64,000 nt of DNA from Phage NC-B. The stretch is from sequence record MK310183. One strand, written 5' to 3'. A program made the position numbers and the translations under genes. Below, piece after piece: positions 30,826-53,137 of the stretch. Each line of letters begins with the position of its first letter. Within the stretch, counting starts at the first letter, position 1. Under the pieces are notes generated by a model. That model saw only the letters and a list, made by a program, of their open reading frames with translations. It was not told the origin of the DNA and ran no database searches.

Positions 30826-31020
30826 TTAGATAACCTTGTGCTCGTAGATGCTGGGGTTGAAATAATGCAACCAGTTTATATATTGTTTCTGTTCAAGGTA
30901 GTGTCTGCAATCATGACAAAAAGCATGACCCAAACCTGTTTCCTCGTTCAGCTTGAAGTTGATAAGAAGCTTCTGCTTTTGACAGAAGCTACATGCTTTA
31001 GTGGGCTTCACGTAGTGCAT
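30826..31020 (-). CDS. Putative zinc-ribbon protein
   Basis: Two CxxC pairs (CSFC, CHDC); start ambiguous, track ORF extends to 31134 overlapping thyX. Confidence 0.25.
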   Translation of the reverse strand: MHYVKPTKACSFCQKQKLLINFKLNEETGLGHAFCHDCRHYLEQKQYINWLHYFNPSIYEHKVI

Positions 31021-31648
31021 CCCATGAGATTGGGAAAAGTTTACGAAGCTCTTCATCAACAGTTGATGCGAACACTCGTACTTCATACTGAGCATGGTCT
31101 GACAGCCGCTGACGACATAACTCTGACCAACCATACAAAGAGCCTGTCCACACCCATTCAGTGATCATGCCCTGAGGCAATACAAATCGAGCTTGCTCTG
31201 GAGCAATAAACTTAATTAATTCATCATACGACTCAAGAGCTGTTTCATATGCCCGATTAATCAGAACTAGTGCAGAGTTTTGTGCTCCTGTGGTGAGGAG
31301 ATTCCCCGCACCTGCATGGAGGTCCGAAGGTCTTTCAAAAATCTCTTTAGGGATGAAGAGTTCAACTGCTCCATCTTTATACCGCCGGGACATTTCGTTC
31401 CACGAGAATCCAACTTGATGCTTGCCCAGCTGTCTCGCAATTGCGATTGGCGCTTTGCATCGGAAGCTAATTGTCGGATGACGGAATGGTGTGACATGCT
31501 TTTCTCTGGCAAGGAACTTGATAAGGCGTTCATCTCGTTCATTTAACTCTCCTTCACGAGTAACCCCAAAAGAAACTCGAGCTGCATTAACAACAGATTT
31601 ATCAGAACCCATTGCTTCGATTAGTGTTGCTTGTAATTGTTCATTCAT
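30998..31648 (-). CDS. thyX: Flavin-dependent thymidylate synthase (ThyX-like)
   Basis: AAGGAAGAG RBS; ThyX-type motif RQLGKHQVGFSWNEMSRRY. Confidence 0.6.
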   Translation of the reverse strand: MNEQLQATLIEAMGSDKSVVNAARVSFGVTREGELNERDERLIKFLAREKHVTPFRHPTISFRCKAPIAIARQLGKHQVGFSWNEMSRRYKDGAVELFIPKEIFERPSDLHAGAGNLLTTGAQNSALVLINRAYETALESYDELIKFIAPEQARFVLPQGMITEWVWTGSLYGWSELCRQRLSDHAQYEVRVFASTVDEELRKLFPISWDALREAH

Positions 31649-31662
31649 CCTTGAACTCTTCC

Positions 31663-31878
31663 TTAATAATGAATCTTTTTATAAACCATATTGCTTCCGC
31701 CTTCTGTTTCAATCCCTTTCTGAATTGTAATCTTAGAAGCGCCAGTGTTAGCAATTTTCAAAGCTCGCTTAAATCTGCGAGCCTCTTTCCGTGTGGAGTA
31801 TGTTGAGAAGCTAGGGATTGTACTATCAAAATTAAACCACTTAACTACCCAAAAAGTAATCCAAGGTTTCTTTGCCAT
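31663..31878 (-). CDS. Hypothetical small basic protein (paralog family with 33745-33957 and 33957-34157)
   Basis: 71 aa; shares TRKEARRFK...G and C-terminal ..HY with the two paralogs. Confidence 0.4.
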   Translation of the reverse strand: MAKKPWITFWVVKWFNFDSTIPSFSTYSTRKEARRFKRALKIANTGASKITIQKGIETEGGSNMVYKKIHY

Positions 31879-31879
31879 A

Positions 31880-32155
31880 TTACTTACCTTTCAGAGCCGT
31901 GTCTAAAAATGCACGGAGATTAGATTCAGTTTGCATACCTGACAAGCTGTAGTGAGCACCACTATTCTTATCAGGGACTACAAAGGCTGGGATACTGCGA
32001 ACACCGTATTCAATAGCTCGCTCTCGACCATCACCTTCAGAGATGTTTACCTCTTCAACTTCAACGTTGTAATCAGCCACAACCTTCTTAAACACAGGAG
32101 CCATAGCTGCACACGGAGCACATGAATTACTATAAAACTTAATTACTTTACTCAT
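31880..32155 (-). CDS. Thioredoxin-fold redoxin
   Basis: ATG at 32155 with AAGGA RBS; CAPC active-site motif in FYSNSCAPCAAMAP; 91 aa. Confidence 0.55.
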   Translation of the reverse strand: MSKVIKFYSNSCAPCAAMAPVFKKVVADYNVEVEEVNISEGDGRERAIEYGVRSIPAFVVPDKNSGAHYSLSGMQTESNLRAFLDTALKGK

Positions 32156-32345
32156 TCTATTCCTTGTTAATAAACAGGTTGATATGACGCTGGGTAGCAG
32201 GAACAACAATAAAAGATTTATACTGACCTTTTGCTAAGTCATGAGCAATCTTCTTTGTCTGACCAAGACCCATCACACAGCCACTAACGATAATGGCATG
32301 TGCTTGTAATTCTTCAGGTAGGTTTAGTTTCACTCTTTGGATTCC

Positions 32346-32531
32346 TTATAGCATACAAAGAATAATAACAAGAGGTAGTGTTATAGCAAAATGTACCAGA
32401 ACAACACTACCTAGCTTGATAGCTTTAACATCCTCTTCTGCTGGGTTTTCTTTAATTGCTAAATTTCGAGCTTTATATATAACAGTACCAACTATTAACG
32501 ACCACACGGCCCACACAATCAGTGAAATCAT
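32346..32531 (-). CDS. Small two-TM membrane protein (tandem paralog)
   Basis: 61 aa, two hydrophobic helices; paralogous to 32541-32762. Confidence 0.4.
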   Translation of the reverse strand: MISLIVWAVWSLIVGTVIYKARNLAIKENPAEEDVKAIKLGSVVLVHFAITLPLVIILCML

Positions 32532-32540
32532 GTCAAACCC

Positions 32541-32762
32541 TTATGCAGTCAACAGGTGGAGAAGGAAAGGAATGACAACAGAGAAAACTACCAGAGCAAT
32601 GCTACCATGTTTAATAGGTTTGGCATCATTTGGATTTTCTTTAAGCATCTGTTTCTGAGCCAGATAAACGATACCACCAACAAGAATTGCCCATACAGAC
32701 CACACGATTGCTGAAAACATATTCATATCCTTATAAAGAAGTTCGCCCCACCTCTTAAACAA
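32541..32762 (-). CDS. Small two-TM membrane protein (tandem paralog)
   Basis: 73 aa; shares IVW.VW.L.VG..IY.A......KENP......IK.GS..LV with 32346-32531. Confidence 0.4.
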   Translation of the reverse strand: MFKRWGELLYKDMNMFSAIVWSVWAILVGGIVYLAQKQMLKENPNDAKPIKHGSIALVVFSVVIPFLLHLLTA

Positions 32763-32783
32763 AGAGACAGGGCGGAGGTTTGA

Positions 32784-33359
32784 TTAGTAAGACACGTCAC
32801 CACTGGAGTGGGACATGTTGCTCTTGACGAAGTAACAGAACTTGCCAAGACCTTCATTAATTTCTTGAAGCATACTCTGATCAACTGGATAGGTGCACAA
32901 GTCTGAATCAAACTCGTCCATCTTCTCAATGATACACATAAGAGTCATGCACATGTCGGAAAGCATACCGTCCATGTCGAGATCAGCGTTACCTTCTCGG
33001 AACCAAGCATGACCTAAATAGTTACTAGCAGTAGCATCCACTTTAACACAGTGAAAGCGCATACGCTCTGCTATTCGGTCGCCTGCCTCACGAGCATAAT
33101 CTTCTAGTTCATCGAACATACCATGAACACCTTGGAAACCAGCTCCAGAGACGTTCCAGTGGTAGTTCTTTGCTTTGATGTGTAGAAGTTCAAGGTTAGC
33201 TTGCACACCACACAAGATGTGTTCTAAGCTGTTACCACTAATCAGTTTATTCATTCCCTCAAGACGAGAAATAGAAGAGTCAGTAGTAGAGAATGGGTTG
33301 CTAGGACCCACTCTTGTTAGCTCTGGTAAATCGAAGACATTATTATGCATTAGGTGCAT
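32784..33359 (-). CDS. dps: Dps/ferritin-like protein
   Basis: Motif KNYHWNVSGAGFQGVHGMFDELEDYAREAGDRIAERM matches Dps ferroxidase-site region; start may be ATG at 33350. Confidence 0.5.
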   Translation of the reverse strand: MHLMHNNVFDLPELTRVGPSNPFSTTDSSISRLEGMNKLISGNSLEHILCGVQANLELLHIKAKNYHWNVSGAGFQGVHGMFDELEDYAREAGDRIAERMRFHCVKVDATASNYLGHAWFREGNADLDMDGMLSDMCMTLMCIIEKMDEFDSDLCTYPVDQSMLQEINEGLGKFCYFVKSNMSHSSGDVSY

Positions 33360-33672
33360 CCCCTTCTAAGTTAGTTGAATTAGCTACATTACGAGCAATG
33401 TTATCCATGACCTGCTGTGTGATAACAATGCAATTCTGAGGGTCTACTGATTTAGAACGCCCCATTTCAGGGTCATAGACTTTGACTCGCTTGGCTGTTG
33501 AGCCAGTAACTTGCAACACTTTGAGAAGATAACCTTGATTTCCAATAGACCATGCAACAACATCACGATTCTTGATATAACGACCAAGCATATCCCGATG
33601 ATAGAACTGCTGCATAACTTTAGCTTTGCTAATCTCTTCAGATGGCGGAGCCACTTTACTCAAATCTAACAT
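33343..33672 (-). CDS. Hypothetical protein
   Basis: AGGAGAG RBS; 109 aa. Confidence 0.45.
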   Translation of the reverse strand: MLDLSKVAPPSEEISKAKVMQQFYHRDMLGRYIKNRDVVAWSIGNQGYLLKVLQVTGSTAKRVKVYDPEMGRSKSVDPQNCIVITQQVMDNIARNVANSTNLEGDAPNA

Positions 33673-33711
33673 TTCACTCTCTCCTGTTTAACACAATATT
33701 CTTATACTGTA

Positions 33712-33720
33712 TATACATTT
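33712..33720 (-). promoter_or_regulatory. Candidate promoter element (variant AAATGTATA)
   Basis: Minus-strand motif ~40 nt upstream of start 33672. Confidence 0.3.
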
Positions 33721-33744
33721 GAGAGTGATCATATCTACTACCAA

Positions 33745-33957
33745 TCAGTAGTAAACATATCCAGAGATATATGAGCCTTTATCCCCACTAAACTCAAACC
33801 ATCGATGCATGTCAGCACGTTTAACCGTACCGACTAGAGCTTTCATATTCTTCTTAGCAATACGAGCCTCTTTACGAGTGTTAAACAGTTTGATACTATC
33901 TTTACCTAGATGGACACCATCTTCCCAAACAACACGAACAGCCCACATCTTTTTCAT
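33745..33957 (-). CDS. Hypothetical small basic protein (paralog family)
   Basis: 70 aa; MKKMWAVRVVW...RKEARIAKK...GYVYY. Confidence 0.4.
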   Translation of the reverse strand: MKKMWAVRVVWEDGVHLGKDSIKLFNTRKEARIAKKNMKALVGTVKRADMHRWFEFSGDKGSYISGYVYY

Positions 33958-34157
33958 TAGTAATGTACCTTTCCGCTGATATAAATACGGCCTGAGGTAT
34001 ACTCATAGCCCTTGAGAATCTTAACAGAGATAAGATATCCAGTGTGTAATTCACTGAATGATTTCTTAAGCCTACGTGCATCTTCTCGTGTTTTCTGGTA
34101 GGTCATGGTCACACCCCCACTTGTCCACTCTGTCTTAACTAACCAAATTCTTTTCAT
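33957..34157 (-). CDS. Hypothetical small basic protein (paralog family)
   Basis: ATG at 34157 chosen by alignment with paralogs; track start 34172. Confidence 0.4.
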   Translation of the reverse strand: MKRIWLVKTEWTSGGVTMTYQKTREDARRLKKSFSELHTGYLISVKILKGYEYTSGRIYISGKVHY

Positions 34158-34172
34158 AAGACCTGCTCTCAT

Positions 34173-34706
34173 TTAGACACCCTTAGAAGCAACTACACCT
34201 TCGCTACCATTATAGCGACCCTTAACTGCATAGGAATGTTCACCAGCATGTGAATGCTCAAACATCACCATCTGACCAACACGCATACCAGCACGAACTC
34301 GTAAGCTGTGGTGCTTGGTTACGTTATGAAATTCGAATGTCAGCTTGCTGTTGTTAAACCCAGCGTCTGCCCAACCAGCATGTAAATGGTTCAGGCCACA
34401 ACGAGCCATCGAAGATCGCAAAACAAACAAACTGGAGATGTTATCTGGAAGGTTGAACTCTTCCATTGAGTGAGCCAAGAAGAATTGTCCCGGAGTGATG
34501 ATAATACCATCTTCAGGGATTTTTACTTCTTTCCACTTGAGGTTTTCTTTAGCATCAATGTCAACAATACCATCAGCCTGTTCTTCAACAAGGATAGTAT
34601 CACCAATGCGGATATCCACGCTAGCAGCGTTAACATATTTATGCTCCGCATCTAAAAAGCCATTATCAATAACGCTGTGTAATTCTTGAGAACCTAAAAG
34701 ACTCAT
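34173..34706 (-). CDS. dcd: dCTP deaminase / dUTPase-family enzyme
   Basis: Motifs ASVDIRIGD and GWADAGF consistent with dCTP deaminase family; ATGA overlap with upstream gene. Confidence 0.55.
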   Translation of the reverse strand: MSLLGSQELHSVIDNGFLDAEHKYVNAASVDIRIGDTILVEEQADGIVDIDAKENLKWKEVKIPEDGIIITPGQFFLAHSMEEFNLPDNISSLFVLRSSMARCGLNHLHAGWADAGFNNSKLTFEFHNVTKHHSLRVRAGMRVGQMVMFEHSHAGEHSYAVKGRYNGSEGVVASKGV

Positions 34707-36148
34707 GAGTTTCTGTTTCCTTGTACGGATGATGCCAAATTATTAATCATGTTGCGAGCTGTTTCACGAGATAGTGTAACACCTGCTAAGTTGTTACGAA
34801 GCTCACCAGATAGTTCACGAGCAGTAGCTCGAAGTTCTGCACCAAGTGCAGTGTCAGAGTGAGCCAGACCGTTACGACGACCAACAGGTCGAGGAGCTTC
34901 GTTAGCGTCATTAGCTAATGATGCAAAACCAATATGAGCAGCTTCACGAGCCGCTATAGCTGATACTCGATCTTCTGTAGGGGTTGGTAAATCACCAACG
35001 TCTACACGTTCGATATCACTAGCACGAATTCCACCAACAACAGATCTTACTGTTTCCCATGAACGACGAGAACGCTGCAAATCATCCATTGATGGAGAAG
35101 AAACAGGACGAGCAGTTCCCCCTGAGACATGCCATGTATGGTTGTGGGTGTCCGTCCCGGAAGAGCGTGAACTAACACGTAAGTCACCGGTAAAAGTTTC
35201 ACGAGGTGCCACTGTAGAAGGAGCTGCGAATCTTGCCTGTTGCCAAGAATCACGTCTGTTGGTTCCCGGAGTCCAAGGCTGCGTGATTGCTTCAGCACCT
35301 ATAGTGGTTAATCCGCTAGACCATTCTGTCTGTAGATTAACTTCCTCGTCCAGATAACTACGACCCCTTTCCTGAGGAATGTTTAATATAGTTTCCATCA
35401 TCTTCAGGGTATAATGACGACGCTGATTCTGATATAAATTTACACCAGCCATAGGTCCAACTAAATCACTAATCAGGTGAACTTCTGGCTCACCGAAAGC
35501 TCCCATTGCAAGGTGCATATATTCAGTAGAACTGCTATAAACTGCAACAGTTGCTTCAGGCCACTTCTTGTGAACATACTTCATTTCACGACTAGATACC
35601 ACAGGAATGTCACGAGTGTATGACATTGCAAACAAACCTTCGTTTGACACATACAGATTACCAAGAGTCATAAACCCTTGACAGATCATAGGGAAGCGAC
35701 GGCTTAAAGTGTCCATATCCAAAGGTAGATTAATCATCATCTGGATTTTAACTTGATCAATCTCAATTTCCAGAATCTCTTGGAAAGTGAAAAGCGCTTC
35801 AGCATAAGTTGTCCCGTTAACAGGTTGAACTAGTCGAGATGTTACTTGAAGTCCCTTACTCTCTGTCCAAGACAAGAAGTTGTCGAGGAACAGTGCAGCA
35901 TTGCCTACGTTAGCAGGGCTATTTTCCTGACGAGTGTTCCAACGAAGACCGCCTTGAACTAGGAAGATATCAACATCATTCGGAGTTCTATTTTGGAAGA
36001 ACGTATCACGGATAGCACCACCTGCAATAACAGGATAGATGCCATCAGGGACTACGTTATCTCTGATCAAATTACGAATCAGGTCAAGCCCTACACTGAG
36101 GGCTTCTCCTTCTTGAAGGTTCAATTCAGACAATGGAATCTTAATCAT
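34703..36148 (-). CDS. Pol-beta-superfamily nucleotidyltransferase (CCA-adding enzyme/poly(A) polymerase-like head) with Arg/Ser-rich low-complexity C-terminal half
   Basis: N-terminal VIAGGAIRD...PNDVDIF matches GG.VRD...D.DI head motif of class II tRNA nucleotidyltransferases; 481 aa. Confidence 0.45.
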   Translation of the reverse strand: MIKIPLSELNLQEGEALSVGLDLIRNLIRDNVVPDGIYPVIAGGAIRDTFFQNRTPNDVDIFLVQGGLRWNTRQENSPANVGNAALFLDNFLSWTESKGLQVTSRLVQPVNGTTYAEALFTFQEILEIEIDQVKIQMMINLPLDMDTLSRRFPMICQGFMTLGNLYVSNEGLFAMSYTRDIPVVSSREMKYVHKKWPEATVAVYSSSTEYMHLAMGAFGEPEVHLISDLVGPMAGVNLYQNQRRHYTLKMMETILNIPQERGRSYLDEEVNLQTEWSSGLTTIGAEAITQPWTPGTNRRDSWQQARFAAPSTVAPRETFTGDLRVSSRSSGTDTHNHTWHVSGGTARPVSSPSMDDLQRSRRSWETVRSVVGGIRASDIERVDVGDLPTPTEDRVSAIAAREAAHIGFASLANDANEAPRPVGRRNGLAHSDTALGAELRATARELSGELRNNLAGVTLSRETARNMINNLASSVQGNRNS

Positions 36149-53061: not shown

Positions 53062-53137
53062 TGGTGCACCCTACAGGACTCGAACCTGTAACCAACGACT
53101 TAGAAGGTCGCTGCTCTGTCCATTGAGCTAAGGGTGC
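53062..53137 (-). tRNA. tRNA-Arg (anticodon UCU)
   Basis: 76-nt cloverleaf on minus strand: acceptor GCACCCT/AGGGTGC, D-stem GCTC/GAGC, anticodon loop CTTCTAA, T-arm ACAGG-TTCGAGT-CCTGT, 3' CCA encoded. Confidence 0.8.

Follow-up and report, generated by a model that had tools for sequence, protein, structure and literature searches.

The 64,000-nucleotide stretch of Phage NC-B DNA analysed here (sequence record MK310183; hereafter, the window) encodes a Dps-family mini-ferritin that belongs to a divergent subfamily, and its gene belongs to the core genes of the lineage of prolate (C3) podophages from which the DNA comes. This is an old, functional phage gene, and we put at roughly 60% the probability that its product acts as a functional mini-ferritin, a dodecamer that would detoxify iron and H2O2 and so protect chemically, without coating DNA, while the phage replicates. 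At the level of the original prediction, which had named a phage-encoded Dps or ferritin-like protein, the assignment of the gene is already known from databases and the literature, as gp67 of phage phiEco32 has been annotated as a 'DNA-binding protein; member of the Dps family' since 2008. Below we combine sequence, profile and predicted-structure comparisons of the protein with the genomic context of its gene, and weigh on this basis what such a protein may do in a virulent phage.

The Dps gene and the family of its product

A single open reading frame (ORF) occupies positions 32784–33359 on the minus strand and corresponds to 191 amino acids. Its translation carries KNYHWNVSGAGFQGVHGMFDELEDYAREAGDRIAERM as residues 64–100, so that both the frame and the ferroxidase-like motif that had been read in it are real. 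Judged from conservation, the start of the gene is the second ATG, M4 at 33350, which gives a Dps-family coding sequence at 32784–33350 (minus strand) of 188 amino acids plus the stop codon, within the longest frame that reaches to 33359. We place the start there because M4 alone among the N-terminal columns is invariant in our alignment of 20 family members (alignment A1, whose members have 26–83% identity to the window protein), because phiEco32 lacks an ATG where the window has M1, and because database entries give the orthologues a length of 187–188 amino acids. A putative Shine–Dalgarno-like AAGGGG (33360–33365, minus strand) lies 9 nucleotides upstream of the M4 start codon, and phiEco32 has GGAG at the same spacing.

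The ORF directly upstream (33343–33672) terminates in TAA at 33345–33343 and overlaps the Dps gene by 8 nucleotides when counted from M4 and by 17 when counted from M1. The two genes had been proposed to be coupled through an ATGA/TAA junction; overlapping and probably coupled genes are indeed what the sequence suggests, and translational coupling is plausible, but the ATGA form does not hold, as the junction reads ATGCATAA and the upstream stop is TAA. On the other side of the gene, 10 nucleotides past the Dps stop, a scan matched a terminator-like hairpin with a 13-pair stem (32744–32774, minus strand; RNA fold −18.8 kcal/mol, z −2.5), with a stem identical to that in phiEco32 and a different loop. 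Its T-tract is weak, and it could plausibly be a terminator or an RNA-stability element. A candidate phage-sigma promoter, TAATGTA, found 26 nucleotides upstream of M1, was dropped as a chance match; the phiEco32 copy reads TAACGTT, and the window has 19 copies of the motif where 10.4 would be expected.

The profile search that had been proposed as a check of the ferritin-like assignment places the protein in the family, with Pfam Ferritin (PF00210) scoring 32.9 bits (cut-off 24.5) in a single-sequence match limited to residues 59–102, and further profile and fold searches concur. PHROG 3636 matches residues 40–184 (E value of 1e-52), phmmer against the PDB finds around 55 distinct Dps sequences (best match M. 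smegmatis Dps2, E value of 1e-9) and the profile of the 20-member alignment matches Dps chains end to end with E values from 1e-27 to 1e-12, among them B. anthracis Dlp-2 (1jig; E value of 1e-27, residues 4–142 of 146). The score for the NCBIfam Dps equivalog NF006975 is 34.6 compared to a cut-off of 114; with equivalog scores this far under the cut-offs, the protein represents a divergent Dps subfamily. Searched against 1.84 billion cluster representatives, the same 20-member profile has 8,270 matches at an E value ≤ 1e-3 and just 11 at an E value ≤ 1e-30, which makes the phage clade a minor and divergent offshoot of a large Dps family.

The AlphaFold model of the protein (pLDDT 84.5) has the predicted layout of a Dps subunit, a four-helix bundle made of helices A (residues 45–69), B (75–102), C (129–150) and D (158–180), with a short BC helix (111–116) in the B–C loop and no E helix; residues 1–25 are disordered and a helix at residues 29–41 is modelled with low confidence. 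When the model was searched against the PDB with Foldseek, the top 50 matches were Dps proteins without exception (target-normalized TM-scores of 0.69–0.92), and the best of these superpose with an rmsd of 1.2–2.4 Å across 134–148 residues. Classical ferritins and bacterioferritins share the PF00210 four-helix-bundle superfamily with the window protein, but in them the di-iron site lies within a subunit, a fifth helix (E) is present and the shell is a 24-mer, whereas the ligands of the window protein follow the intersubunit pattern of Dps and its bundle includes the BC helix.

Ferroxidase site, pore and terminal extensions

The ferroxidase centre of Dps proteins combines a helix A His and a helix B His, Asp/Glu from one subunit with an Asp and a Glu from its two-fold partner. 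In E. coli Dps, H51, H63, D67, D78 and E82 are these intersubunit ligands and W52 is the adjacent Trp. The corresponding helix A–B segment of the window protein (residues 64–100; 33060–33170, minus strand) was assigned from the columns of the family alignment, from an alignment to E. coli Dps, whose reference sequence we checked to be identical to PDB 1f30, and from HMMER alignments to M. smegmatis Dps2. Its residues H67, W68, H79, D83, D94 and E98 align one-to-one with H51, W52, H63, D67, D78 and E82 of E. coli Dps, with identical spacing. All but D83 are invariant in the 20 family members, and D83 is kept in 19 of them. Conservation of the ferroxidase residues had been set in advance as the test on which the assignment would stand or fall, and the assignment survives it.

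Other parts of the putative shell are less typical. The Asp of the usual D-x-x-T-x-D / ADML pore segment aligns with Ser162 in the window protein and with Asn in its relatives, and D160 and an acidic C–D loop (E144, D147, E148, D150 and D152) are present. As the canonical three-fold pore Asp is replaced by Ser or Asn, iron may enter the shell differently than in typical Dps proteins. Residues at the helix A/B interface are strongly conserved across the family alignment, which is consistent with assembly. The protein has six cysteines, including those of a partly conserved DMCMTLxC motif.

The bundle is preceded by a non-basic N-terminal extension of about 45 amino acids, delimited from the family alignment (residues 4–48; 33216–33350, minus strand), which contains the motifs MHNNxFDLP and S-x-x-R-L/M-E/D-x-M. 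Together with a C-terminal tail that ends in Tyr, the extension is found in that alignment only in the kuravirus-like clade. Bacterial Dps proteins (1DPS/1F30, 2Z90 from M. smegmatis (Dps2), 1JIG and 2CHP from B. subtilis (MrgA)) thus share with the window protein the predicted fold, the BC helix, the ligands and the Trp, but they have only 17–26% identity to it, and the window protein differs from them in missing the NCBIfam equivalog cut-offs, in its extension, in the absence of a Lys-rich tail, in its six cysteines and in the Ser/Asn of the pore. They differ in setting too, as bacterial Dps proteins belong to an OxyR/sigma-S stress regulon whereas the window gene lies among the nucleotide-metabolism genes of a virulent phage.

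Distribution, origin and gene neighbourhood

The 7 kb around the gene have 90–94% DNA identity to Escherichia phages 4E8, vB_EcoP-101114UKE3, HC-25922, Bas87, IME267, ECBP2 and SU7, and 79% to phiEco32. The window comes from a virulent prolate (C3) podophage of the phiEco32/SU7-like type, in the Gordonclarkvirinae (Kuravirus, Suseptimavirus), and with about 93% DNA identity between the window and phages of this subfamily the phage had rightly been called lytic. Proteins 99–99.5% identical to the window protein occur in phages SU7, Bas87, HC-25922 and EK010. The orthologues in phiEco32 (gp67) and SU10 (CDS67) have 84% and 82% protein identity to it, respectively, and share with it the gp68 gene upstream, thioredoxin and ThyX genes downstream, the N-terminal extension and an identical C-terminal tail; the few substitutions fall mostly in the extension, and the window adds the in-frame ATG three codons upstream. 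In the SU10 study, CDS67 (with a DPS domain), thioredoxin and CDS68 were common to all five C3 phages then known, and mass spectrometry of the lysate detected both CDS67 (35.8% coverage, 6 peptides) and the gp68-like orthologue (PMC4281155). Others have therefore shown that the SU10 Dps orthologue is made as a protein during infection.

Of 50,697 phage records searched with tblastn, 133 contain this family of Dps proteins, a frequency that bears out the description of a phage Dps as uncommon. In 97 of these records, the protein is at least 80% identical to that of the window, and 98 records match the surrounding 7 kb; the gene is thus present in essentially every kuravirus-like genome. The remaining 36 records (30–43% identity) are Salmonella 7-11-like, Proteus Privateer-like, Cronobacter and Aeromonas prolate podophages and one Synechococcus myophage. 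Among these, the proteins of Grimontviridae and related C3 podophages (Privateer QIN94861, 7-11 gp073 and those of Cronobacter GAP52 and Aeromonas phages; 33–43% identity) conserve the ligands and share a module of thioredoxin, dCTP deaminase and a gp68-like ORF, but have neither the long extension nor the tail with which the window protein begins and ends. Separate Dps lineages are carried by some 95 phages of Streptomyces, by phages of Lactobacillus and Clostridium and by further phages, and BFVD holds Dps folds from Bacillus phage G, Lactobacillus LP65 and uncultured phages. Dps genes are therefore infrequent in phages, at well under 1% of records, but recurrent.

Compared to phiEco32, the dN/dS ratio is 0.076 overall, 0.04 for the core bundle and 0.19 for the N-terminal extension, with dS near saturation; as judged from these ratios, the gene is under strong purifying selection, and both the extension and the C-terminal tail are subject to purifying selection. 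A recent capture from the host is ruled out, given that a search of 5,426 complete E. coli genomes gave no DNA match to the gene and that the protein is 17% identical to E. coli Dps. In GC content, too, the gene (43.4%) matches the window (42.1%).

All genes from around position 30998 to 36148 lie on the minus strand. In the direction of that strand, they comprise a nucleotidyltransferase, a dCTP deaminase, two phrog_4939 paralogues, the gp68-like ORF and Dps, followed by two small phrog_9296 membrane-protein paralogues, a 58-amino-acid ORF, thioredoxin, a third phrog_4939 paralogue and ThyX. The Dps gene shares its strand with the nucleotide-metabolism and replication genes, including those for DNA polymerase subunits. 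Upstream, the dCTP deaminase (34173–34706, minus strand) is assigned by its annotated orthologues in phiEco32 and Bas87 and by tblastn matches across loci. Downstream, the thioredoxin (31880–32155, minus strand; Pfam Thioredoxin, E value of 2e-12) is also near Dps in phiEco32, 7-11 and Privateer, and indeed in every C3 lineage examined.

The flavin-dependent thymidylate synthase ThyX (30998–31648, minus strand; Pfam Thy1, E value of 1e-42) has a more uneven association with Dps. It lies within about 2 kb of the Dps gene in kuraviruses, in 7-11 (where the two are adjacent), in IMG/VR locus L017 and, independently, in Streptomyces phage Peebs, but is absent within 10 kb of it in Privateer-like phages, in the jumbo-phage loci L018–L020, in L021–L026 and in L027. 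A general linkage of Dps and ThyX is at most suggestive, with raw counts that include lineages of shared ancestry.

The gp68-like ORF (33343–33672, minus strand; 109 amino acids) is the orthologue of phiEco32 gp68 and belongs to phrog_10984 (E value of 1e-62). It has no Pfam match, its low-confidence AlphaFold model (pLDDT 70) is an SH3/KOW-like barrel, and a search of the PDB returned no significant fold match (best at an E value of 0.02 or worse). A homologue lies directly upstream of Dps in Privateer (38% identity, overlapping) and in L017, whereas in 7-11 the gp68-like gene is apart from Dps. The gp68-like protein is a possible partner of the Dps protein. Further afield, a bacterial relative (P0038) is encoded within an AhpC–AhpD–Dps peroxide-stress cluster beside a LysR-type regulator, and the long Dps-domain proteins (P0043, P0107 and others) have no second domain recognized in Pfam or PHROGs.

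Proposed function and competing explanations

In the reading that we favour, the subunits would assemble into a 12-subunit shell, as in bacterial Dps, and ferroxidase sites at its two-fold interfaces would oxidize Fe(II), with H2O2 as the preferred oxidant, and store the resulting Fe(III) within the shell. This would remove both reactants of the Fenton reaction while phage DNA is replicated and redox-active nucleotide enzymes are at work, and the replicating phage would benefit from lower Fenton damage. The protection of replicating DNA or the management of iron, as proposed in the original prediction, would both be plausible roles. Dps ferroxidase chemistry uses H2O2, which is also formed by flavin-dependent ThyX enzymes when they act, as a side activity, as NAD(P)H oxidases; on this known side activity and the partial gene linkage, we speculate that the Dps may deal with H2O2 from ThyX. 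Some observations sit less well with the detoxifying role, namely the altered pore position, the NCBIfam equivalog scores below their cut-offs and the missing ThyX linkage in several other Dps-bearing phage lineages. We found no functional, biochemical or genetic study of any phage Dps in the searchable literature.

Two of the alternatives come from existing annotations. Many GenBank and RefSeq records of close relatives name the product an integrase (for example, NC_070982.1 PQC43_gp069, IME267, MLP3 and KBNP1711), but the product name alone speaks for such a function. The gene mislabelled in this way is the one described here, its only Pfam domain is Ferritin, the predicted fold is the Dps four-helix bundle, and searches of Pfam, NCBIfam, PHROG and the PDB returned no recombinase family, so that we consider an integrase refuted and give it practically no chance. 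The 'DNA-binding protein' label of phiEco32, of many relatives and of PHROG 3636 implies instead a protein that binds and compacts DNA, coating that of the phage or the host as in the E. coli Dps co-crystals. DNA binding is established for some Dps proteins, whereas several Dps proteins without basic tails fail to bind DNA. The label was taken over from the name of the family and we hold it to be doubtful in this case, as the protein is acidic (pI of 4.86) and neither terminus of its sequence has the Lys/Arg-rich tail of the DNA-binding Dps subgroup: the first 52 residues (pI of 5.8) hold 1 Lys and 2 Arg, the C-terminal 13 residues hold 1 Lys, and the alignment shows no counterparts of K5, K8 and K10 of E. 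coli Dps. We therefore regard DNA coating as unlikely, although it is the least unlikely of the alternatives, and by the same acidic pI and missing tail any protection would probably be chemical.

The other two alternatives accept the mini-ferritin fold and place it in a different role. A virion-associated Dps, packaged in or bound to the prolate capsid through the N-terminal extension or a gp68-like partner, would protect the encapsidated genome, carry iron or be delivered to the next host. It would account for an observation that a purely intracellular role does not predict, as the Dps-family protein of Privateer was one of just ten proteins detected by mass spectrometry in particles purified by CsCl step and equilibrium gradients, with its function unverified there (PMC7881722). 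Conservation of the gene across the compared C3-morphotype phages (PMC4281155) fits as well, and BFVD has Dps folds inside proteins of uncultured phages named 'Prohead protease', which shows that a Dps domain can occur joined to a protein of capsid assembly. A single paper came up for the pairing of a prohead protease with Dps, and in it 'DPs' stands for decoration proteins. However, the gene sits in the replication and nucleotide-metabolism module, outside the structural one, a stable 250-kDa shell could merely co-purify with particles, and the Privateer protein lacks the kuravirus extension. The SU10 data do not help, as they come from a PEG precipitate in which DNA polymerase, thioredoxin, a sigma factor and many other non-structural proteins were present too; we rejected them as virion evidence and read them as showing expression only, and a cryo-EM and gel-band mass spectrometry study of the SU10 virion makes no mention of the Dps protein. 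We also looked for the N-terminal motif elsewhere as a candidate capsid-targeting peptide and rejected the idea, since it is found in no other window protein and no other ORF of at least 50 amino acids in the window has an FDLP motif near a terminus. Virion association thus seems quite improbable, somewhat more so than DNA coating, and a Dps that is a structural or packaged part of prolate C3 virions, inside or on the capsid and directed there by the extension or the gp68-like protein, would be a slightly longer shot still. About equally remote is a repurposed shell whose chief task would lie outside antioxidant protection, serving as an iron supply or buffer for iron enzymes of the phage or the host or in a redox-regulated role with the gp68-like protein and thioredoxin. 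The pairing of gp68 and Dps between lineages whose Dps proteins are 35–41% identical to that of the window, the nearby thioredoxin in all C3 lineages examined, the unusual six cysteines with their partly conserved motif and the changed pore position would all fit such a role. Yet the strictly conserved catalytic ligands argue for retained ancestral chemistry, gp68 has no recognizable redox or metal motif and a low-confidence model, and the cysteines have no link to function. Retained detoxifying chemistry remains our preferred reading.

These results bear on how such genomes are annotated and used. Several kuravirus-like phages are candidates for therapy, and because an integrase is often taken to indicate a temperate lifestyle, the wrong product name matters; the start codon can be corrected too, and nothing in the sequence supports the 'DNA-binding' label. 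With a strictly conserved and expressed core gene in a well-studied model lineage (phiEco32, SU10 and BASEL phages Bas86–91) and a tractable host, the system offers an entry point to why a virulent phage needs an iron and peroxide buffer of its own and to whether Dps reaches virions. If it does, a packaged mini-ferritin would be analogous to the ferritin-like cargo of encapsulins, and would guard the densely packed genome or enter the next host with the DNA. If the antioxidant role is true, a redox-protection element would join the nucleotide-metabolism toolkit of these phages, with Dps next to ThyX and thioredoxin.

Structure and paralogues around the Dps gene

Ten nucleotides past the stop codon of the Dps-family mini-ferritin gene lies a GC-rich hairpin with a 13-pair stem (window 32744-32774, minus strand), followed by only a weak T-tract. 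Whereas the stem is exactly the same in phiEco32, the loop differs, which is the pattern expected of a conserved RNA structure.

Immediately downstream of this hairpin, we found a tandem duplicate of phrog_9296 (window 32541-32762 and 32346-32531, both minus strand), whose copies encode small hydrophobic proteins of roughly 60 residues that are probably membrane-spanning; phiEco32, by comparison, has a single copy annotated in the corresponding interval. Three paralogues of another family, phrog_4939, are dispersed in the module and flank the pair formed by Dps and the upstream gp68-like ORF on both sides (window 33957-34172, 33745-33957 and 31663-31878, all minus strand), each encoding roughly 70 residues with a common 'TRKEAR' motif.

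In phage Bas87, the stretch between ThyX and thioredoxin (L002 5482-6400) holds an HNH endonuclease gene and an additional small ORF, both of which are missing from the same interval here (window 31648-31880), a difference typical of mobile-endonuclease presence or absence among close relatives. Elsewhere, the window encodes a single tRNA gene, tRNA-Arg with anticodon TCT (window 53062-53137, minus strand).

Dps in other phages

ThyX adjoins Dps or lies at most 2 kb away in the unrelated families Stanwilliamsviridae, Grimontviridae and Gordonclarkvirinae, as exemplified by Streptomyces phage Peebs (L007 4956-5357 and 7133-7834) and Salmonella phage 7-11 (L004 2779-3899), and does neither in several other Dps-bearing phage lineages. 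A functional link between the two is possible.

Three predicted viral structures in BFVD (A0A6J7XDU5, A0A6J7WPK9 and A0A6J7WIS1), named 'Prohead protease' and 333-763 residues long, contain a Dps-like four-helix bundle, and these models suggest that certain uncultured phages encode fusions of Dps domains with capsid-maturation proteins. P0043 (777 residues), from the Dps-family profile search, has two tandem Dps domains (roughly 44-181 and 200-346), and the roughly 430 residues after the second have no match in Pfam or PHROGs. On a 224-kb IMG/VR jumbo-phage contig, a 196-residue phage homologue of Dps (L018 9968-10558, plus strand) ends in about 35 residues that are nearly all Asp and Glu, the opposite of a DNA-binding tail.

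The 'integrase' label

The Dps gene (window 32784-33350, minus strand) bears the product name 'integrase' in the GenBank/RefSeq records of many close relatives, including 101114UKE3, IME267, MLP3, KBNP1711, ES17 and others, as does the counterpart PQC43_gp069 in NC_070982.1 (L028 610-1176). The sole domain it contains is Ferritin/Dps. This mislabel could make these virulent phages, which are candidates for therapy, pass, wrongly, as temperate.
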